This document shows, one piece after another, positions 17,979-50,160 of a DNA stretch of 64,000 bases. The stretch is from the NCBI GenBank assembly GCA_951406725.2, contig OX597821.1, forward strand, positions 115,382,001-115,446,000, given 5' to 3'. The notes under the pieces are model-generated. The model worked only from the letters and a program-made list of their open reading frames with translations. It searched no databases and was not told where the DNA came from. The translations under genes and the position numbers were made by a program. Origin of the DNA: Octopus vulgaris (Eukaryota). The stretch's first letter is position 1. Every line of letters starts with the position of its first letter.

Positions 17979-18517
17979 CTTCTTCTCTACTCTAGGTACA
18001 AGGAATGAAATTTTAGGAGAAGAGGCTAGTCGATTAAATCGACCCCAGAGTGTAACTGGTACTTGATTTATCGACCACGAAAGGACGAAAGGTCAAGTCA
18101 GTCTCGGTGGAATTTGAACTCAGAACATAGCGGCAGACGAAATACCTATTTCTTTACTGCCCACAAGGGACTAAACACAGAAAAGACAAACAAGGACAGA
18201 CAAACGGATTAAGTCGATTATATCAACCCCAGTGCGTAACTGGTACTTAATTTATCGACCCCGAAAGGATGAAAGGCAAAGTCGACCTCGGCGGAATTTG
18301 AACTCAGAACGTAGCGGCAGACGAAATACCTACTATTTCTTTACTGCCCACAAGGGGCTAAACACAGAAAAGACAAACAAGGACAGAAAAACGGATTAAG
18401 TCGATTATATCGACCCCAGTGGGTAACTGGTACTTATTTAATCGACCCCGGGAGGATGAAAGTCAAAGTCGACCTCGGCGGAATTTGAACTCAGAACGTA
18501 GCGGCAGACGAAATACC
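17979..18517 (-). mobile_element. Three tandem headless Meta-like SINE bodies
   Basis: Units 17979-18146, 18147-18330 and 18331-18517 each begin (minus strand) at GGTATTTCGTCTGCCGCTA; the two inner units carry a Tx1-type tail. Confidence 0.9.
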
Positions 18518-18759
18518 AATTTCTTTATTGCCCACCGGGAGCCAAACATAGAAATGGACAGAACAACTGATGGGATCAGTGAAGCGATATGATTTTACAT
18601 ATAATGTGACTTTAAACATTTAAATACAATATATAAAAAATCGAATGGAATTAACAATACAAAGACAATACAAATGAAGCGATGATCAGGCCACGCTCCG
18701 ACCCCACAAGCCCCGATCTACCGCTGGTACCTTTTTTTCTTTTTTTTCCCCCCGTCTAT

Positions 18760-21700
18760 TCACACGGTTCCTTGCACGCACAACACTCGTGCAACATGCT
18801 TCCGTCTCTTTTGGAACGTACACTCCGACAGACACCTCTTCTCCAGCCACAGTTTCCTTTTCAAATGAAAAGAAAAAAATGATCGTAAGTTGTGGCCAGA
18901 GATAAAGTTGCCTGTCTTAATTCCTTTTATCCTAGTCTTCCATACTGCCTCTTTTGCTATTGCTACAACCGTGAGAAAACAATTCTTACCTTCGTTCGTT
19001 AGAACTCCCGGTGGGTCAATATTTATACTTGACTCAGTCGACAGCTGTACTTTTCCTTCGCCGGACAACAGGTGTTCAGCATAAGCCCACATTTCAGTTA
19101 TCTCCGGACACTGAACAATAGCGTGAGGGACGGTTTCCCTGCCCCACTCCCCGCATCTTGGACAGGTCGGCGACTGACGTTTACTATGTCCTGCGAGCTT
19201 ATCCCAAACGGGCAAGGCACCTCTGTAGCATTGCCAGGTTAATGACTCTTGGAAGTTGCTCAACGTTCTCAACCCAAATGTACGGTGAAACAGGCTGTCC
19301 AGTTGAATAAATCCTAGACCTAGAGTCGACCCCAGGCCATCGTCGCATTCAGACTCTACCAACCCACTATATAAAATCCATGTGGAACCCCCACCGCTGG
19401 CGTTGCCCAAGCGCCGGAATAGCAAGAGAGCCTTACGGAACTCTTTATGCCACTCACTCGACCTCAGTCTACGAGAACACCAGGCTTCCTGTTCGCAAAA
19501 ACTTTTGAACTCAGGGAACATTTTTCTGGCCAGCGGAGACCACACCCGTTCACTATCCAGGAGAATCCAGAGGTGCCTCAACCTCAACGCATGTCTGCGC
19601 ATCATTAACCAAGGCATCCCTAAACCTCCCTTTAAAAGCTTTTGACGGCAGACAGAGCGTTTCACAAGTGGCGACCTGCCCTTCCACAAAAAGCGAAAGA
19701 GCTGTCTCTCAAACCTGATCAACCACGAATCCGGACAGGACACGACAGTAGGTAATGACCGATGCGATAAACACATTGACCACCTCTGGCCTCCCTTTCA
19801 GGGATAGCCACCGCCAAGACCAGGTCTTGACTACTGCAGCCACCCTGCTCAATACCTCCGTCCAGTTCTTCTCTATCTGGAGGCCTGGTCCAAACCAGAC
19901 TCCCAGCAACTTAACCGGTCCCTCCGTCCAGCGCCCAACAACGCTGTCTGAAGGCATCGACTTGCCAACCCAGGTGCCGAGCTGCAAGCCGACCGACTTT
20001 TCCCGGTTAATCTTTGCTCCTGCCACCTCCTCGTAAGCCTCAATACCCACTTCACGTAGGCGTGCCACTGAGGTTACGCTGATAGTGATATCATCCGCGT
20101 AAGCCGTAACAAACTCCTCTAGACCTGGTTCTCTCGGGATGCCACTCAGTCTTCCCAGTAAAGGCTCGAGAGCCATCACGTACAAAAGTGGTGAGAGCGG
20201 ACATCCTTGACGAACCGAGCGTCTGATACAGAATGGCTTCGAAAGGAAACTGTTCACCCGAACTATCGAGTCAATGTTGTAGTACAAAGCGATAAACTAC
20301 CTGAGGAAGTCAAGGCCCAGGCTAAACCGCGCAAGCACAGTCGCCAGGTATTGATGGTCAACCCTATCAAGAGCTTTAGACTGGTCCAAATGTACCAATG
20401 CCCCACCTTTGCTAGATTTATTACCAACCCTCTCTATGGTATAGCGAATAAGATGGAGGGTATCCTGAATGGTTCTGCATGGGATGGCACATGTATGTGC
20501 CGCCCCGACTATACTATTCGTGACACGCGCCAACCTTTTTGCTAAGGCCTTGGCCCAAATCTTCACTTCTGCGTTTAACAGTGTGATGGGCCTGAAATTC
20601 TCTAAAACGTCTCCCTTGTCCGGGTCCTTTCTGACCAACGTCACTACTCCCCGGCGCACAGATCTGGGGATAAGCCCATTATGTTGCCAGTTCGCGTACA
20701 CGTCAGCCAGTAGTTGCCCGAACAAGTCTGGCATTCATTTATACAGCTCATACGGAAGACCATCATGTCCCGTCGACTTACCCGCTTTACAGTCGGCCAA
20801 AGCCTCCTTCACCTCCACAGGCGTGATTGTCCCTTCGCAAGACTCCGCACCTGACCCCGAGAGGCACGGCAGCCCGGCAAGAAAGCCCTCGAGGGCTCTC
20901 CCACCACCAGGACCGCCGTCACCCATAGCTGGGCAAAGTACTCCCGAAAGGCCTCACACATTTTCTCGGATTCGTTTACCAAGACACCATTTTGATTCGT
21001 CAAAGACCGAATAGAGGAACTTATTTCCTTGCCGAGCTTCCACCACTCGGGCCCATCCAGCGGCCTTGATTCCTTCACTTCCCATTGCACGTAACTTAGC
21101 TCTGGCAATACTTTCCATGTGTTGGGCTTCAAGATGCTGGTTTTAACTCCAGTCTTTTCACCCTCGCTTGGTCTGCATTACCAGTCCTCCAGGCTTAACT
21201 AGACCATCTCCTATTCTATGTCCCTTCTTAGCTAAACTTAATAGATTCATATTTGATTGCTCTTTTTAGAGCGTACCACCATATGTTATTAATGATGGTA
21301 CCTGTTAATGCCCTCTGTATTAACATCTTGATCCGCTTTCTGTACTCCTCAATCGCAAAAAGGGACGTGGTTGAGTTTCCAGTAGCCAGATCCCTGACTA
21401 TGCAACTTATCTACCGTCAGTTTACAGGTAACCATCTTGTGGTCACTGTAGCTGACTAGAAAAAACTGTGGACACTCGACTATGGACTTGCCTGTTTCTC
21501 TAATTAAAATCCTATCTAGATATGTTCTAGAAGACTCGTCACTATTTGACCACGTCCACTGTGGAGTGTTCGGGTGTTCCAACCTATATGGATCTACAAG
21601 CTGAAATTGACATAGCAGATCTCGTAAGCCTGTGTCACATTTTCTGTTCATGTTCGAGCTAACACAATCTGTGTATGCTATACATATTAAAGTCTCCTAA

Positions 21701-22110
21701 CAGTACTAGCGAATGCGACGTGGCTAGGAACTTTCCCAGGTCACGAAAATATTCAGTTTGCGGGCCAATAATGTTTGGTGCGTAAATAGCGACCAGCCTG
21801 ATTGTCTTGCCACAATTGAATGTCAGGTCGAGAACGACCAACCTGCCTTCTGGGTCAGAAAAAAACCCAACTTTTTTGAGGCTACTCGGTTTCTTTTTAG
21901 TAGGAACAACACCCCACCTCCCCGCCCGACTCGGAGAAACGTATTTCTCGTAGCCGTTCAGGGGTGGGGCAGATTTCTTGGCCCCTTCACCCGGGTTTCC
22001 GTTGCAATAATTACATCCAAATTTCTCGACCTGATGTCATTTAGAAAACGTCCTTGCTTCCAGCTTGACATCAGGCCACGAACATTTATACAACCAATGT
22101 GAATAGACAT
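18760..22110 (-). pseudogene. Tx1 ORF2 (endonuclease/reverse transcriptase), frameshifted
   Basis: MSIHIGCINVRGL..ATETR; VAIYAP..LGDFN; YLDRILI..SDH; FRPITLLN; DQSKALDRVDH; VRQGCPLSPLLY; YADD; CPRCGEWGRETVPHAIVQC. Confidence 0.92.
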
Positions 22111-22113
22111 GAC

Positions 22114-23340
22114 TTACCTTTTAGATCGGGGCGTCTTGTGGAGAGGGGTTCTCCGCCTTTTCTTGACTTAGGGTCGGAGATGGTAAGCCTTCAAACATGG
22201 ACTGGTGAAAATCAAGTTTCCATGCTGAGACCGATTTTCTTATGTGTTCGACAACATATTGTATGTTTTTTCGTCCAATTCGTAATTTTTATATTTCTCT
22301 GACAGTTCAATTAATCGAGTCGCTGATTTTTTGGTTTTTATTTCCCGCATTAAATCTTCGTTTTTACTGTATAGTGCAGCTATTCCTCTGTTCGTTACCC
22401 CCTCCGCTTTCCTCGGTCTGTCTCTCTTGGCTGTTTTGTTTTTTGGTCTCGGCTCGCTCTGCTTTTGCTGGTTCGATCCTTCCATTTTCCTTTTATTGTT
22501 TATTTTTTCTTCTGGTTCTTTCTCTCTTTCTTCCCCCTCGCCGTCTGATTCTTCTACACCTTCTTTACAGTATTTTTTAATGTGACCCAGTTGGCCACAC
22601 TGGAAACATCGGGGCTTACGACCCTCAACAAAAATGTTTAGAACTTCCTTCCCTACTTCCACGATTTCTGGGAGCTGTTCTAAAATTTTTCGGTCAGCCT
22701 GTAATATGATGTTAAGCGTCTAACCTGTCCAATAAGTATTTTCTGTGACGGTAGCCTGCCAGAGGTTAATATCTTCCCTGTTTGCCAGGACCGCCGCCAT
22801 CAAGCACATAGGGTTCACTCCGAGCGGAATTCTAGGTATTCGCACTTTTGACGTTCTCATTCTCATGTAGATTAGGATTAACATAGTGTCGTCCGATTCT
22901 AAAGATTTTATAAAGTTGTCTCTGTGCCGTTTCTGCATTCTTGAACCTCACCACGATGGTTCCAAACTTCTTCCCTCTGGCCAGATATGTAATGTCCTGC
23001 CAGATGGGTTTTAAACATTTTTCAATTTTTTGTTCACCTATTTTATCAATTTTCCATGCTTTTAAGCAAAAGGTCTTAAAAATAATGATTTTCTTTTTTT
23101 TTCCTCTGTTAATTCTTCCTCTGGTATTTGTACTTTGACAATTCCATTTTGTTCCGTTATCATATTTTAAATATTCCTTTGTCAGTTGACAGCTGCCATG
23201 TTCCACGCAAAACTTTTCTTTTCTTCATTTTGGATGGTTCCTTTTTCTGTCTTTCTATTAGTGTTCGTAACACTTGGCAATGTTGGAAATTCGCTTTCCG
23301 ACACATCAGAAACGTTGTCGAAAATTAAGCTTTCAATTTT
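22114..23340 (-). pseudogene. Tx1 ORF1 (nucleic-acid binding, zinc knuckle), disrupted
   Basis: VEGRKPRCFQCGQLGHIKKYC; K/E-rich; split over several frames; boundaries approximate. Confidence 0.8.
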
Positions 23341-23551
23341 CTTTGCTTCTCTTTTTAATCGATTCGTCCCCCGACGAAGAACACGAACTTTTCGGCATCC
23401 TGCCGGCAATTAATGTTTTCCCCCACATGGGAAAACCACAGATAGCTTTCGAAAGAAAAGTATACTACAACTTTTTCAACAATAGGCACAGCAAGAAATA
23501 TAACAATTAATAGAAAGTCACGAACACACTCCAACAACAAGTCCTCAGCAA

Positions 23552-23615
23552 CAGACGTACGATATACCACAATGCATTTCGCCCGGCGTGCTGACATTTC
23601 TGCCAGCTCGTCGCC
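23552..23615 (-). mobile_element. Head of the Meta-like SINE interrupted by the Tx1 LINE
   Basis: Minus strand GGCGACGAGCTGGCAGAAATGTCAGCACGCCGGGCGAAATGC; outer TSD TTTGAACTTTCAGGATT (17962-17978) vs TTTGATCTTTCACGATT (23617-23633). Confidence 0.85.
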
Positions 23616-24212
23616 ATTTGATCTTTCACGATTGAAATATCTGGCGTAAACTACGGATGTGTGTGCCATGATACCAACGACAACTTTCTGAAAAAATGGA
23701 ATTTTCCAGATACAGTTTTGATGACGCTACATAGGAGTTTGTTCTAAAGATGTTCACGGATAATTCACACACCTCGATTTGTTTCCTCGCAGCTTTTTCA
23801 AAAACAGAAATTTTTTCCGTAAATTTAATTTCACACCAGACTTGATTTCGGTATTAAAAAATTCTTTCCCCGCGGGGTTTTTTTTTTGGGGGGGGGGGGA
23901 ATCGTCTTAGCTGTCGGAAATGCATTTTCTGTGGAAAATTTAGGGGGTGAGGTGGAATGAAGCTGATTAGCAAACGTCGCTTTGTTGTTTCTCTGGTCAG
24001 AAGCGTAACAAAGCGTTGCAGCAAGTAGCCATTTTTAAATAAGGCGCCAATTTGTGGTAGCAATATGACGTAATATTATTGTCGTTTTTTCATTGGTTAA
24101 TATAACTGCACATATAAGAATTCTAAGAGTTACTTAAAGAATATTTGTATGTAATTTCGATTCATTAAAGTCAGTTGAGCAGTTATAAAAACCCTGGATT
24201 TTGAGGAAAACT

Positions 24213-25560
24213 TCAGTGTTTGTTGGATGTCAGTTTGGCTTGGACGTGTTTTTTGAACCTGTGAGTGGCTGCTTTGAGTGAATTTGTTGATTTTGTTAAA
24301 CGTTGTTGTTAAGGGTTATTATTGGACGGTTCTTTCGATTTTTGTCTGTCTGTGTTGGGACGGACGGAGGGGGGCGGTCTGCCCCTCCCTGGGGGAGAGA
24401 TGGCAGGGCGAGGTATGTTTGAGGGTCTCAGTGTGTTGGATTTGTCGACCTCTGGGGGGGAGCTGGAGGGGGCTGGGGGAAGATGGGTGAAGAACTGGGA
24501 ACTACGTGCGCGCGAGCGACAGGGTTGGTGGAGGGGGAAATGGATCTGGCTGGGTTGCCAAGTTGTCGGGATTTCGGCGGTGGGGTGGAGTTGTCACCGC
24601 CACAGGGGAGAGGAGAATGGCGTGAAGGGGGGGCCCATCGCGTGCAGGGTTTGCGCAGGTGAAGTGGGGAAGGTTGAGGTGGTCGGAGTGGAAATTGTTG
24701 AGATGCAGTTCTCGAAATGAATGTACAAGCGGAAACTGAAGTGCTGGATCAACTAGCAGAAAACATTAAAATGGGAAACATTATTATGAGAGTGTGGGTG
24801 GGGGCATAGCTCCTTGCTGTAACAAGTGTGGCCTGAAGGGCCACATAAGAGCTAACTGCCCTCCCCCATCAAAGGAAATAAGATTGGAACCACAAAGAGA
24901 TGTAGAAACCGAGGAGGAACAGAATACAACGGAAGAGGAGGAATTACCAAAAGAACGGGAAGAAGGAGGAAAAGGAGAAGGAAAAAAGCAAACCGTTCTG
25001 AACCCCAACCCACCCCAACACCACCCGCACCCTCTGAGGCCCACCCCTCCCCTGCAGACAGTGAACCCACCCGCTCCCCACCAACAAGAAAACAAAAAAA
25101 ATAGAGACAGCAAACACACAATATAACTTTAAAAATCCTAGGCCCAATATTCTTGGTATTTGGAACTCAGAAGAAATACGGGAAATAATGGAAGAATGGG
25201 GAAAGGTGGAATAGAATGACAGCTGGGACAAGGCGGGGGTTAATGGACGCAGTAATTTCTGAAGATCATGTAAAGGAACTTAGGGAGGAATTTTTAAAGA
25301 AAAACTATAAATTGGTTAGGCATAAAATTGAAAAAGAGAGAATAACTGAATTGGAAAGAATATTTGAATCTAAACCAGAGGACTATATGTATTTCATTCC
25401 GGTATAGGGAAGAAGGACAGGTAAGTGATGCTAGCGGATGGGGCCGTTAGCATCACTTACATTATTTCATTTTTTCATACTTTGTGTAATTGTGATGTTT
25501 TATGTCCCCAATGTTTGTATTGTCCCCTCTGTGTAGCCCTTTATGGGTAATAAAAAATCA
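24213..25560 (+). mobile_element. ORF1-only (HAL1-like) Tx1-related non-autonomous retroelement, copy 1, A-to-G hypermutated in its 5' part
   Basis: ATG at 24400; CNKCGLKGHIRANC knuckle; stop at 25407; hairpin 25421-25460; tail TGTAGCCCTTTATGGGTAATAAAAAAT; no endonuclease or RT motifs. Confidence 0.8.
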
Positions 25561-26200
25561 TCAGTGTTTGTTGGATGTCAGTCAGTTTGGCTTGGACTTG
25601 TTTTTTGAACCTGTGAGTAGCTGTTTTGAGTGATATTGTTGATTTGATTTGTTAAACGGTTTTATTGATTTTTGTCTGTCTGTATTGAGACAGACAAGGA
25701 AGAAGCGGTCTGCCCCTCCCTAAGGGAGAGATGGCAAGGCGAAATATGTTTGAAAATCTCAGTGTGTCGGATTTGTAGACCTCTGAGGAGGAGCTAGAAA
25801 GGGCTGTAAAGAAGATGGATAAAGAACTCGGAACTACATACGCGCGAGCTACGAAGTCGGTGGAGAAGGAAATAGACCTAGCCAAGTTGCCAAGTTATCA
25901 AGATTTCGTCAAAAAGGTCGGCGGTGAAGTGAAATTCTCACCGCCACAAAAAAGAAAAGAATGGCATGAAAAAAGAACCATCACGTACAAGGTATATGCA
26001 AATGAAAAAAGGAAAATCGAGTTAGTCGGAATGGAAGTAATTGAAGAGGGCTCTGAAAAGGACAGAAGAGGAGATAGTGTTTCTGGCAAGAGGTGTAGGA
26101 TTCGACAGCGTAGTGGTCCAATCTTAAAACGAAAGAGTGGCTAGAAGAATGGCTGCAAAGACAGTGAAGTCGGAGAAGGTATTCCTTCTGCCCTCGTATC
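25561..26200 (+). mobile_element. Same element, copy 2 (head-to-tail, 3'-truncated, A-rich)
   Basis: Starts with the same CAGTGTTTGTTGGATGTCAG; ATG at 25731 MARRNMFENLSVSDL*TSEEELERAVKKMDKELGTTYARATK. Confidence 0.85.
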
Positions 26201-26400
26201 TGGAATGGAGCGGATTAGCAACCGTCGCTTTGTTGTTCCTCTGGTCAGAAGCGTAACAAAGCGTCATTGCTTCCACTAATTCAAAAATACATCAAACCTG
26301 GCTCAGTTATCTACAGTGGTTCTTGGGCGGCTTACAAAGATATACAATCATTGGGTTATCAACATTACATGATAAACCACAAAGAAAATTTGGTTAATGT
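26201..26400 (+). pseudogene. Merlin/IS1595-like DDE transposase fragment
   Basis: GMERISNRRFVVPL / KRNKASLLPLIQKYIKPGSVIYSGSWAAYKDIQSLGYQHYMINHKENLV; the first ~65 bp are duplicated at ~23953-24018. Confidence 0.8.
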
Positions 26401-26514
26401 TTACATTTTGACCCGGAAATGAAAATCCAAAATAAATATTGGAATTGGTTTAAAACAATGTGTAGGAAACGAGTATGAAAAAAAAAGCCCGCAAAACAAC
26501 GGGAAGGTGGCGAG

Positions 26515-26770
26515 AGCACTTCGGAAAATTCACAAGATCCGAGCTTTTCCCTCGTAACCTTTAGCAAAAGGGTTTTTTTTTTTTTTCAATGAAATTTTAT
26601 AGAAATACCTTTAATGGAATACATTACGATTATAAAGAAATTTGTGGGGAGGAGAGGACTTCGGGAAATTCACAAAATCCGAGTTTTTCCCTTATAACTT
26701 TTAGGAAAATGGGGGTTTTTTCAATGAAATTTTAGATATCTTTGAAACGGCATACATTATGACTATAAAG
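26515..26770. repeat. Two ~140 bp diverged tandem units
   Basis: ACTTCGGRAAATTCACAARATCCGAG...TTCAATGAAATTTTA...TACATTA occurs twice. Confidence 0.75.
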
Positions 26771-27144
26771 GGCGATCTTTCGTTACAAAACACATGTGTT
26801 TATTTACATTTGTGAAGATGATCGTCGATTTCCGTAAAAAAAAATTATTTTTTTACATATGGGGTTGGGGGGGATGGGATCTTTTGATGTTGGCGTGAAT
26901 CGGAAGATTTGATGTGCATGCGTGCGTGTGTATGTGTGTGTGTGTTTGATGGGGTGTGCGAGACACACACATACACACACACCTACACACACACACACAT
27001 ACACACACACATACACACACACACACACACGGAACACCAACTTCTACATTAGACAAAAAAAAATTAAAACAATATCTATGAATCTGATCATAAAATAACC
27101 AACAAACACAAAACACAAAGCACTCACACACACACACACACACA

Positions 27145-27183
<39 letters not shown>

Positions 27184-27204
27184 AACGCCAAGATAGATAA
27201 ATAG

Positions 27205-28053
27205 ATATCTTTTTATTATGGCCACACAAGGCTAAACCCAGAAAATAGACAAAATACAATGTAGAGCTTTTTTTCGAGGTGGGGATGGGTGGGACACACA
27301 AAGAAAAAGTTCGATCAATAGGGATCTTTGGGTTATGTGGTGTACAAAAAAAATGAAGAAATATATAAAGTTCCCCCAAAAAAGAGGGGGAATCGATATT
27401 GTTCACAGTTTAGGTGTAGCCTTGGAAAGAAAAACCTACAAAAAAGACGAAGACTCAGGCAGTTCAAAATGTACATAAGAGTAAGTATCTTGCCCCTCGT
27501 TATAGATTTATGCTTAAAATGGTGTCGTCTTTCATTTCTGACCATTCTTGCCACATTTACCCATTTTTTATTGAAACTTTCATTCGACAACACTTTCCTC
27601 TCTATTCTCATCCTCCTTTTCAAGTGGTACTTGAAAAAGTTGACGAGAGACTGACCAGAGAGGAAAGTGTTTGTTTGTAAGCCTTTCAAACGCATCCCCC
27701 ACACACGTGATGTCAAACGGTAGGGTAGCGTTCCAATCCCCTACTAACAGTAAAGGTTGAGAAGTTCCCAGGAAAACCTCTAGACATCTGAAGAAATCCA
27801 CCCGACCCGTTAAGGACGGTGCATACACTGCCATCAGATGGAATGCACACCCATTTCTGCCATCCACGTCCAAGACAACCAGCCTACCCTCCGGGTCTAG
27901 GAATATTGATCTTATTTTTACATTTAGACTCTTTCAAAAAAGCACCACAGTACCACCACCACCCATGTTTGGCAGACAGGGAGAAAAATAAATGTCGAAT
28001 TGTCTGCCAAACATGGACGTGAGAGCCCATGGGTTACTGAGTCTGGTTTCACT
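27205..28053 (-). mobile_element. Internally deleted Tx1-like LINE within a (TATC)n microsatellite
   Basis: Endonuclease motif AVYAPSLTGRVDFF..LLVGDWNA joined to the ORF2 C-terminus FLSGQSLVNFFKYHLKRRMRIER; Tx1-type tail; GATA repeats on both flanks. Confidence 0.8.
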
Positions 28054-42039: not shown

Positions 42040-43071
42040 AAAAAGGAAATGAAGAAAATGCTGACAAAATAATTTAAGTAAGGGAGAGTGTATTTAATTA
42101 GGTGAAAGTTCTTTTTACCGGTTGCGCATTTGTTATGCTTATCAAAAGATATTTTTTAAGAGAGATAGAGTTCCTTTCTGATAGATTTTTTTCTCTTATC
42201 TGACTTTATGTTGGGTTTGCTGTCTCTTATATGTGAAAAAAGAGGCTCCAGAGTTGTTTAAGAATTGCTTGGTTTCGCGCCTAAAATTTCTTGTGGACAA
42301 TGGTCAATACAATTTTGATTGGTCATTATAAAGGGTTACGTGAATGTTTGAATGGAAGTTGGTGTTGGGGTAAGAAAATAGGCTCCAGAGATGTTAAAAT
42401 TTGGCTAGTGTCGCACCTAAAATTTCTTATTGGTCATAATAAAGAGGTCACACACATACATACATACATATAGCTCTTCCTGTCCTAAACGAACTTACTC
42501 ATCCAGCTCAAATTCAGTCAAGCGGAAAATACACTCCTTAACTACGCTCTAAAAAGCTATTTAAAATATCCACATGACGTCTACTGACCAGCCTGAACAA
42601 TTAGAATTTTCAACAATGCTATTTTCGAAAACTCCATACACCACCCACACCAACATTCATGTGACCTCTCTATTATGACCACATCCACGTGACCTCTTTA
42701 TTATGACCAATAAGAAATTTTAGGTGCGACACTAGCCAAATTTTAACATCTCTGGAGCCTATTTTCTTACCCCAACACCAACTTCCATTCAAACATTCAC
42801 GTAACCCTTTATAATGACCAATCAAAATTGTATTGACCATTGTCCACAAGAAATTTTAGGCGCGAAACCAAGCAATTCTTAAACAACTCTGGAGCCTCTT
42901 TTTTCACATATAAGAGACAGCAAACCCAACATAAAGTCAGATAAGAGAAAAAATCTATCAGAAAGGAACTCTATCTCTCTTAAAAAAATATCTTTTGATA
43001 AGCATAACAAATGCGCAACCAGTAAAAAGAACTTTCACCTAAAATTATTTTGTCAGCATTTTCTTCATTTC

Positions 43072-47051: not shown

Positions 47052-47481
47052 ACTGCCAGTTGGTTGATGTATAGATCCACTGTAATTGATTTACCAGGTC
47101 TCATGAAGCGATGGACCACCGAACAGACACCTTTAGCTTTTTTTTGGTGAATATTCTTTTTTCGATTGTGTTTTGGCACTTTGTCTCTATCCAACCACCA
47201 TGCAGAATGCTTGCTATTGTTGAAAAGAATCCATTTTTTATCACATGTAACAATACGATGCAAAAATGGTTCACCTTTATGCCATGACAGCAAGTTTCAA
47301 GAAGACATGTCATTTGATGCTCATTGAGTTCCTGTGTTACCTACTTGTCCAGCTTCTTTACCTTGCCGATTTGTTTCAGATTGTCCAATACATACCTTGC
47401 TGCTAACTCACGCGTAGTTTGAGATGTATCCACTTCCACTACAGTTTCCAGCTCATCATTATCCACCTTGGTCTCAGGTCT
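47052..47481 (-). mobile_element. Internal Mariner fragment, inverted relative to 49201-50160
   Basis: EPFLHRIVTCDKKWILFNN; reverse complement of ~49303-49750; no TIRs. Confidence 0.9.
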
Positions 47482-47625
47482 ATGAAACCATCATGTAATT
47501 CAATCTTTTTCTTAAAAGAACCACTTTTGGCAGTTACATTCTTTGCAGAATGTCGAAGCAGCTGATTGACATGTGTTGCCATTCTTGTCAACCAGGAGAA
47601 GGCCAAGACAAATGGCTCAGACAGA

Positions 47626-49003
47626 TCATCATCATCATCATCATTGTTTAACGTCCGTTCTCCATGCTAGCATGGGTTGGACGGTTCGACCGGGGTTCTG
47701 GGAAGCCAGAAGGCTGCACCAGGCTCCAGTCTAATCTGGCAATGTTTCTACAGCTGGATGCCCTTCCTAATGCCAACCACTCCGTGAGTGTAGTGGGTGC
47801 TTTTTACGTGCCACCTGCACAGGTGCCAGGTGGGGCTGGCAACGGCCATGGTCAGATTGGTGTATTTTATGTGCCACCGGCACGGAAGCCAGTCGAGGCG
47901 GTGCTGGCATCGGCCATGAGTCGGATAGTGCTTTTTACGTACCACCAGACCAGGGATCCTGGCTGGTTCAATTCGATTTCGATTTCGCTTGCCCCAACAT
48001 GTCTTCACAAGCAAAGGGGGTTGGCATGGGTGCCTGTCGTACGGTCGCATTGGAGTATTTTACGTGCCACGGCCACGAGTCGGATAGTGCTTTTTACGTA
48101 CCACCAGACCAGGGATCCTGGCTGGTTCAATTCGATTTCGATTTCGCTTGCCCCAACATGTCTTCACAAGCAAAGGGGGTTGGCATGGGTGCCTGTCGTA
48201 CGGTCGCATTGGAGTATTTTACGTGCCACGGCCACGAGTCGGATAGTGCTTTTTACGTACCACCAGGCCAGGGATCCTGGCTGGTTCAATTCGGTTTCGA
48301 TTTCGCTTGCCCCAACATGTCTTCGCAAGCATGGGGGGTTGGCATGGGTGTCTGTCGGCGGATGAGGTTCTATATCGACTTCGCTTGCCTCAACCGGTCT
48401 TTGTGTCCAAGGGAGGAAAGGCATTCATAAGTGGGCTGGGCTCACTTGTCCTGCCTGGTCTTCTCACGTACAGAATATTTCCAAAGGTCTCGGTCTCTGG
48501 TCATTTCCTCAGTGAGGCCTAAAGTTCGAAGGTCGTGCTTCACCACCTCGTCCCAGGTTTTCCTGGGTCTACCTCTTCCACGGGTTCCCTCAACTGCTAG
48601 GGATTGGCACTTTCTCACACACCTATCTTCATCCATTCTCGCCACATGACCATACCAGCGCAATCGTCTCTCTTGCACACCACAACTGATGCTTCTTAGG
48701 TACAACATTTCTCTCAAGGTGCTAACGCTCTGTCGAGTATGTACACTGACATTACACATCCATCGGAGCATACTGGCTTCATTCCTCACGAGCTTACGCA
48801 TGTCCTCAGCAGTCACGGCCCATGTTTCGCTGCCATGTAGCATGGCTGTTCGTACACACGCATCATACAGTCTGCCTTTTACTCTGAGCGAGAGGCCCTT
48901 AGTCACCAGCAGAGGTAAGAGCTCCCTAAACTTTGCCCAGGCTATTCTTATTCTAGCAGTTACACTTTCAGCGCACCCACCCCCACTACTGACTTGGTCA
49001 CCT
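47626..49003 (-). mobile_element. 5'-truncated RTE LINE with TSD
   Basis: ORF ..RIRIAWAKFRELLPLL..MLHGSETW..RRLRWYGHVARM..RGRGRPRKTW; 160-bp tandem units in the 3' UTR; TSD CTCAGACA(G/A)AT near 47617 and 49006. Confidence 0.92.
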
Positions 49004-49200
49004 GACTCAGACAAATGACTAAGTATCTTCGTTGTTACGAAGATAGTGCAATTGATTCCACATATGTTAGGCACACAGCATGTTACCATACCAATAGCTT
49101 TTTGTAATCTCAGAGCAGTATCTCTCTCCTAATTAGTAATTATTGCTGTTGCTAATTATAAATGGTCAACTAAGTTTATTTTTATGTGCGACAATAAATA

Positions 49201-50160
49201 TCAGGTCATTAAGAATGGAAAATCTGATTTTTTTATTCACTAAGTTTGACGATTGGTAACTCTAATGTTTTATCCTGACAATTCTTTGTTTTACAACATT
49301 GGTAGACCTGAGACAAAGGTGGATAATGATGAGCTGCAAACTGTAGTGGAAGTGGATACATCTGAAACTACGCGTGAGTTAGCAGCAAGGTATGTATTGG
49401 ACAATCTGAAACAAATTGGCAAGGTAAAGAAGCTGGACAAGTAGGTAACACAGGAACTCAAAGAGCATCAAATGACATGTCTTCTTGAAACTTGCTGTTT
49501 TTTACTGTCATGGCATAAAGGTGAACCATTTTTGCATCATATTGTTACATGTGATGAAAAATTGATTTTTTCAACAATAGCAAGCATTTTGCATGGTGGT
49601 TGGATAGAGACAAAGTGCCAAAACACAATCAGAAAAAGAATATTCACCAAAAAAAAGCTAACGGTGTCTGTTCGGTGGTCCATCGCTGGTGTCATCCATT
49701 ACAGCTTCATGAGACCTGGTAAATCAATTACAGTGGATGTATACATCAACCACCCGAGATTGGTCAACAGAGACAGGCTAATTCTCTTGCAAGACAATGC
49801 TCGACCACATGTTGCACAAAGAACGCTACTCAAGTTGCAGGAACTGAACTTGGATGTACTCTATCATCTACTATATTCATCAGACCTTGCACCAGCTAAC
49901 TATCACGTTTTCTATGCATTAGACAACTTTTTGCAAGGAAAAACTTGAAATCTGAAGAAGATGCAAAACAGCCTTTCATGATTTCATCACCTCTTGCTCT
50001 CCAGAATTTTTTGCTGCTGGCATAAATAAGCTACCGATAAAATGGCAAAATTGTGTTGATAATTTAGGTGCATACTTTAATTAACTGCATTGCTTTTTGT
50101 TGAGATAAAGTAAAATAAACTTTCAGTTCAAAATCAGACATTTCATTCTTAATGACCTTA
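49201..50160 (+). mobile_element. Mariner (DD34D-type) transposon, internally deleted
   Basis: TIRs TCAGGTCATTAAGAATG / CATTCTTAATGACCTTA flanked by TA; motifs IVTCDEK, LLQDNARPHVA, YSSDLAPANYHVF. Confidence 0.92.

Follow-up and report, generated by a model that had tools for sequence, protein, structure and literature searches.

Copying of edited RNA into DNA has been described in cultured human cells, where 3 of 235 pseudogene insertions made by L1 carried ADAR-type clusters, located in inverted Alus (PMC11702581). In avian proviruses (Rous-associated virus, avian leukosis virus), stretches with about 50% A>G were described in the 1990s and ascribed to ADAR (via PMC12925331). Deaminase scars are also known from the APOBEC-edited LTR elements of vertebrates. 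Like the tract reported here, these are sense-strand-specific fossil scars, but they show the opposite change, G>A, and arose on a DNA substrate (PMC4866542). According to the accessible text of the same report, a screen of 123 genomes, which covered LTR elements and DNA transposons with LINEs lying outside it, found G>A only, other types being rare and invertebrates devoid of such clusters. Octopus RNA hyper-editing is among the highest levels reported (PMC5625713, PMC3197674). The hyper-editing clusters described in repeats in these two reports resemble our tract in density, clustering and 5' G depletion; they are RNA-only differences, whereas the tract lies in genomic DNA. One endogenous mouse virus is reported to show an A>G excess without ADAR context (PMC12548423). 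The accessible parts of PMC2873906, PMC5974252, PMC7531822 and PMC11817618 add no precedent, and a literature search that covered few subscription papers yielded no germline-fixed, ADAR-scarred copy of a non-LTR element.

In this study, we analyse a window of Octopus vulgaris DNA, by which we mean the whole stretch of 64,000 nucleotides (contig OX597821.1, positions 115,382,001 to 115,446,000). A first-pass annotation, made from the letters only, had claimed that the RNA of a retroelement in this window, copy 1, underwent ADAR-type hyper-editing, was written into DNA and was inherited. This core claim gains support from sequencing runs of (guessed) DNA type, from A-rich relatives, from the avoidance of a 5' G and from a target duplication together with a 3' tail. 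We describe the element, the A>G tract and its inheritance, and weigh how the tract arose.

Copy 1, its target and its neighbours

The genome assembly to which the window belongs comprises 2.8 Gb in 227 contigs, and a search for the family of copy 1 gave at least 40 matches. Family loci are designated by L numbers. The features of the window are as follows.

18513-23560, minus strand: decayed LINE of L1/Tx1 type, head-to-head neighbour of copy 1 (RVT_1 and zf-RVT over the cut-off, Exo_endo_phos and zf-CCHC under it)
24020-24213, plus strand: fragment of a high-copy repeat serving the subfamily as insertion target (common upstream of L002, L003 and L017)
24214-24230, plus strand: left target-site duplication, a 17-mer identical to 25562-25578
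24231-25561, plus strand: copy 1, ORF1-only (zinc-knuckle) non-autonomous non-LTR retroelement with internal deletion and frameshifts (family matches, zf-CCHC, ORF1 similarity)
24305-24700, plus strand: A>G hypermutated tract, covering the end of the 5' UTR and the first ~300 nt of ORF1
24454-24487, plus strand: predicted G-quadruplex-type motif made by A>G changes (pattern present in copy 1 and absent from copy 2)
24573-24586, plus strand: loss of 12 nt within the tract, relative to copy 2, L002 and L003
24700-24701, plus strand: junction of an internal deletion of ~280-300 nt, at which the tract stops (missing relative to L002 1666 to 1368 and L003 1651 to 1368)
24701-25561, plus strand: 3' part free of editing (zinc knuckle region, 3' UTR, tail)
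25505-25561, plus strand: 3' tail common to the neighbouring LINE and a 187-bp SINE (four 61-nt ends aligned, mean column identity 77%)
25562-25578, plus strand: right target-site duplication of copy 1 and left flank of copy 2 (identical 17-mer)
25579-26210, plus strand: copy 2, unedited sibling in the same target, its 3' side cut after ~630 nt (alignment)
26200-26395, strand unassigned: separate repeat of ~200 bp cutting copy 2 (the initial 64 bp are found again at 23953-24016)

Judged by its sequence features, copy 1 is classed as an ORF1-only, target-specific and LINE-dependent element. Members of its family possess a single ORF, at most 392 codons long and encoding a zinc knuckle (zf-CCHC in L002: 24.6 bits, cut-off 20.8), and the translated similarity of the family to ORF1 of the neighbouring LINE has E values of 1e-17 to 1e-19. 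Copy 1 bears marks of retrotransposition, namely the 17-bp target duplication and the LINE-type 3' tail. One target is used by copy 1, copy 2, L002, L003 and L017, with L003 having it on both sides, which indicates target-specific insertion. Behind 24230, the runs show very high contig depth and loose ends from empty sites. Among the upstream flanks of L006-L030, each ORF1-only subfamily has a flank of its own, as if the subfamilies targeted different repeats.

Copy 2 and L003 are about equally distant from copy 1, with 17/242 and 16/243 differences outside A/G sites, respectively. The target fragment, copy 1 and copy 2 are together flanked by a 64-bp duplication (94%) at 23953-24016 and 26201-26264. 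This duplication was considered as a LINE 5' end and rejected, since it belongs to another repeat; with it fell the proposal that antisense RNA might be driven through copy 2 by a LINE promoter.

The LINE on the minus strand, for which Tx1 type is a provisional label in keeping with PMC3747384, belongs to a family with 4909 first-look candidates in the assembly; this family is the likely kind of donor of the reverse transcriptase. The element is about 94% identical to dozens of copies. It has SINE sequence at both ends and apparently lies within an array of the 187-bp SINE, which suggests target-specific insertion; a tandem array of this SINE occupies 18028-18554. Elsewhere in the window, a perfect 265-nt inverted repeat with a 237-nt spacer (42187-42953) is either a young foldback element or an assembly feature, and an element with 97% inverted arms (47107-49687) holds a mariner-type transposase remnant at 49445-49945. 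Host exons were not found among the 18 other long frames scanned.

Extent, neighbour context and inheritance of the A>G tract

When copy 1 (24340-24700) was aligned pairwise with copy 2 over 360 columns, 70 of the 130 A of copy 2 stood opposite a G, and other substitutions numbered 17. For polarisation, copy 2 and L002-L005 served as outgroups, and columns were kept if they held at least two relatives with at least 66% agreement. Relative to these five close copies of the family, 60 of the 119 A on the sense strand of 24311-24700 had become G, with 10 other changes in 351 columns; a recount from the multiple alignment gave 69 A>G versus 12 other. The mirror change T>C was found in 1/78 (Fisher p 1e-15 versus A>G), A>T twice and A>C never. 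G>A on the sense strand amounted to 3/100, which is not an APOBEC-type pattern. The A>G changes are confined to the strand of the element RNA (ORF1 sense). They begin near 24305-24324 and stop at 24697-24700, at the internal deletion, the last edits standing at 24697. Immediately 3' of the tract (24701-25160), A>G was 0/163; for the entire 3' part of copy 1 it was 8/282 (p 4e-29 versus the tract), six of these in 25161-25300, and on the 5' side (24020-24310) it was 3/71. A minor cluster of A>G at 25191-25287, where the sequence is variable, is not counted as edited.

At the changed sites, 25 more distant copies hold A in 1158 of 1415 cells (82%), so that copy 1 is the one that changed, from A to G. 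Compared with copy 2, the G content of the tract stands at 46% versus 27%, and runs of at least three G number 20 versus 2. The first-pass annotation had counted by eye about 60 A>G and roughly a dozen other substitutions, figures which are, if anything, low, and all five examples that it quoted are visible in the alignment of the two copies. It had placed the tract at 24340-24700, of which the end stands and the start has to be moved slightly upstream. Its polarity agrees with the outgroups: the relatives are A-rich, so copy 2 is not G>A hypermutated. The argument that it had drawn from the A-rich segment 24780-25560 was weak, since copy 2, cut at 26210, does not extend into a matching segment.

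At the site of the 12-nt loss (24573-24586), two of the sequencing runs described below carry more letters than the window, X4 12 and X1 3. The loss is probably later than the insertion, and the extra letters would represent the edited form of the lost segment. The G runs created by the changes are now indel-prone, their lengths differing at 24573, 24618 and 24699 among the four runs compared.

Sorted by 5' neighbour, changed A in the polarised set numbered 9/11 after T, 31/45 after A, 7/15 after C and 9/36 after G; the recount from the multiple alignment gave 13/15, 38/54, 7/17 and 10/40, respectively. A 5' G is depleted (9/36 versus 47/71 after other bases, p 8e-5), a 5' C is not separable from a 5' G (p 0.34), and 5' W is favoured over S (p 9e-7). 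Among triplets, TAG was changed in 5/5 and AAA in 19/24. The 3' neighbours, which are small numbers, were G 20/30, A 21/44, T 8/17 and C 3/13, leaning to G (20/30 versus 32/74, p 0.05). It had been noted before that A is often spared after G and changed after T, A or C; this holds for G, T and A, but after C only ~40-47% were changed. Depletion of a 5' G is the ADAR motif common across metazoans (PMC5625713), and AAA is typical for ultra-edited RNA (PMC3197674). Invertebrate RNA hyper-editing leans to a 3' A (PMC5625713), which the tract does not clearly show.

Contigs of 8 of the 24 listed sequencing runs hold part of the stretch, none of these holders being listed as RNA, and four runs, with types guessed as DNA, were compared. 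In X1, possibly the assembled sample, a single contig of 634 nt covers 24211-24851 and differs by 7 other letters. X2, another sample from another study, has contigs of 249 and 291 nt with 3 and 6 other letters, and X4, which bears organism label B, a 729-nt contig over 24188-24927 with 20 other letters. X8 (organism label C) contributes 151 nt at a depth of only 2 and gives a hint. All of these contigs have the G-rich form and all span the deletion junction, and the G-rich contigs come from three samples and three studies, one with another organism label. At 24602, X1, X2 and X4 carry an extra G where the window keeps the A of the relatives. The check for the G alleles in genomic DNA thus finds them in runs of (guessed) DNA type from three samples, which, unless every one of these runs is RNA, rules out an assembly or polishing artefact. 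The tract thus sits in the germline and predates the divergence of organism labels A and B. Private non-A>G divergence of copy 1 is 2.8-4.8%, versus 2.7% between the window and X4, which would place the insertion about two to three times further back than the A/B split, no rate being applied.

Rarity of edited copies

Clusters were found in 1 of the 58 family copies inspected (the two copies of the window plus 56 further loci). The edited copy had no sibling among 38 matches, the best other match reaching 74%, and none of 29 loci and copy 2 was otherwise hyper-edited. Two scans for successive mismatches of one type, the one all-versus-all over 113 sequences (505 kb, at least 12 of 15) and the other over 30 further loci (at least 11 of 15), brought up no other hyper-edited copy. 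Several candidates were rejected: L013, L018 and L044 are microsatellites, L079 reflects subfamily divergence, and L139 shows A>G 8-10 versus G>A 4-8 against its nearest kin. The remaining candidates of the 30-locus scan, judged by the matching stretch alone, are simple repeats, mirrors of copy 1 or L079, or matches to a single partner. A branch comprising L079-L082, L131, L132 and L140 has a G-richer ORF1 3' end on the sense strand, with ~25 A>G versus 7 G>A against other subfamilies; this is probably ordinary divergence, the alternative being an old edited founder.

In the LINE family, no cluster was seen in the best-scoring 29 copies, a set biased against hypermutated ones. One LINE motif in its edited form gave 0 matches, a figure that lacks a baseline and therefore puts no limit on the frequency. 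Private changes in these copies (L084-L112) are strand-skewed, with A>G 95 versus T>C 52, G>T 65 versus C>A 26 and T>G 28 versus A>C 15, and this skew looks like a general transcription-linked asymmetry and not like editing. For the 187-bp SINE, one 27-nt motif has 44,310 exact copies in the assembly, although tandem arrays reduce the number of independent insertions behind this figure. The motif with its four TA sites in edited form was found 0 times in the assembly, as was the mirror control. Allowing one mismatch gave 13 versus 1 in the mirror control; this was rejected as a strand bias, because one site is a common variant with G in 16 of 75 background copies. The one-mismatch copies are not hyper-edited outside the motif (A>G 6/243 versus 29/2149, p 0.16). 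The 95% upper bound for SINE hyper-editing is ~1-2 per 10,000 copies if 80% editing per TA site is assumed, for one motif of one family. The SINE results speak against a large effect of editing on the SINEs of this genome.

Two wider proposals of the first-pass annotation fall short on these counts. A general route of mutation from editing to the genome is not supported by one family copy in 58 and none hyper-edited among the 44,310 SINE motif copies. ADAR-based restriction of retroelements is not supported by a single copy; moreover, according to the accessible text of PMC5224506, human ADAR1 does not need its deaminase domain to restrict L1, and more than 2.5 kb of L1 RNA showed no editing. 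The edited copy is one event, its strand statistic being that of a single locus, and represents an apparently rare fossil, not a demonstrated restriction system.

Origin of the tract and comparison with known systems

We consider it probable that copy 1 derives from an RNA that was hyper-edited by ADAR and then retrotransposed; that ADAR and reverse transcription combined by any route we hold to be highly probable. Over a 5' stretch reaching from element nt ~75 to ~470 or beyond, the sense transcript of the ORF1-only, LINE-dependent element would have formed a duplex with complementary RNA. The most likely partner is the antisense RNA of some other copy of the family or an inverted copy situated at the source locus. 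ADAR would have deaminated about half of the adenosines in the duplex, sparing A after G, and a LINE reverse transcriptase would then have copied the edited RNA at the subfamily target (target-primed reverse transcription, 3' to 5'), reading inosine as G. During copying, some 290 nt bordering the edited region on its 3' side would have been lost. Copy 1 would subsequently have entered the germline and become fixed before the A/B label split, followed by neutral decay. The deletion may stem from a template jump or a cut at the inosine-rich duplex, or from a later loss that hides the true end of the tract. Hyper-edited RNAs are reported to be cleaved or non-canonically spliced (PMC3197674). The deletion is not ascribed to splicing, since the lost segment has no GT start in the alignment.

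Exons for A_deamin (PF02137) are present at four loci of the assembly, ADAR1/2 and ADAD or ADAT1 not being told apart in this count. No duplex partner was found in the element or nearby, which counts against this reading: long inverted repeats were absent from the element sequence of three family members and from 22000-28000, the single long inverted pair in L003 is part of an insertion unrelated to the element, and shuffled sequences fold as well as copy 2 RNA does (z -1.15). Inverted near-identical family pairs do exist at three of the loci examined (L127, L133 and L134, contig C28), where they stand head-to-head with 99% identity over 187-421 nt of the stretches analysed, in palindromic repeated units, and family duplexes can therefore form. 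The C28 pairs belong to a distant subfamily, only 69-79% alike.

The sharpness of the tract, the unedited ends on both sides and the deletion at one edge would also fit a post-insertion event, in which cDNA of an edited transcript, of this or a sibling copy, overwrote part of an unedited copy by gene conversion or RNA-templated repair and the deletion marks one end of the patch. We regard this as unlikely. The intact target duplications make a single insertion event simpler, the edited form is present in every compared run covering the tract, and distances outside A/G sites are star-like (16-20 of ~240 differences to copy 2, L002 and L003), although the last is a weak test. A template switch between different source copies is not detectable by these distances. 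Error-prone DNA synthesis, with a Y-family polymerase (eta or iota, placing G opposite template T) producing the sense strand, be it in second-strand synthesis or in gap repair, or with a reverse transcriptase under a skewed dNTP pool, would dispense with RNA editing altogether. It would be strand-specific and clustered, the W-over-S 5' context is compatible with it in that WA is a context of polymerase eta too, and second-strand synthesis of a new insertion would offer a plausible long gap. Against it stands the tract itself, in which ~50% of the A are changed along ~390 nt while A>T occurs twice and A>C never, a density and purity far beyond what these polymerases are known to produce; imbalance of the dNTP pool yields mostly G>A and T>C via wobble pairs. 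This origin appears distinctly unlikely.

Direct deamination of the sense DNA strand by ADAR, while paired with antisense RNA in an R-loop or hybrid, would be expected to leave the same neighbour context. Nevertheless, hypoxanthine in DNA gets repaired, and a saturation of 50% is unlikely in this setting. ADARs do act on the DNA of hybrids in vitro (PMC12925331), but the activity is described at mismatches and for mutant enzymes, and we judge this origin very improbable. Hardly credible, finally, are an artefact of assembly or RNA-based polishing and the reverse change, by which copy 2 and its relatives would be G>A hypermutated: nothing was found in favour of either, and against them stand the G-rich contigs in (guessed) DNA-type runs of three samples and three studies and the 82% A in distant copies.

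Hyper-editing of the RNA before retrotransposition is accordingly the reading that we prefer. A much broader view, to which we give only a small chance, is that germline ADAR regularly hyper-edits LINE-family transcripts meeting antisense RNA, that inosine-rich duplexes are cut or skipped in retrotransposition, hence the deletion at the edge, and that many divergent fossils are missed by ordinary repeat alignment. If it were true, such scars would be to A>G what APOBEC scars are to G>A, and they would preserve the ancestral ADAR motif in dated form. In a bolder, local version of this view, the partner would be the 3'-cut copy 2 transcribed antisense, the tract and the start of the deletion falling within its ~630 nt. 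Copy 1 itself would show RNA editing that entered a genome in nature and was passed on, with ~60-70 substitutions in one step, published cases being somatic or viral. It would place ADAR-type activity on retroelement RNA in the germline lineage before the A/B label split, with the old neighbour preference preserved. Moreover, it offers a design, three-letter realignment of repeat copies, for a genome-wide screen of editing that feeds heritable change.

The mechanism is known in kind, and its germline setting is apparently undescribed. In its mode of insertion, copy 1 resembles the target-specific LINEs of the Tx1 group and their non-autonomous partners (PMC3747384), with a fixed target in another repeat, tandem copies there and a 3' tail that LINE and partner have in common, the clade assignment being provisional. 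With the edited mRNAs retrotransposed by L1 ORF2p, copy 1 shares clustered substitutions of one type, fixed by target-primed reverse transcription of edited RNA. Those cases are somatic and experimental, with edits in inverted Alus of the same RNA, whereas copy 1 is natural, germline-fixed across organism labels and edited in its own ORF1, with no partner arm in the insert (PMC11702581). The avian proviruses likewise have about half of the A in a stretch changed to G and copied to DNA by reverse transcriptase; they are exogenous retroviruses, whereas copy 1 is a non-LTR element fixed in an invertebrate germline (PMC12925331).
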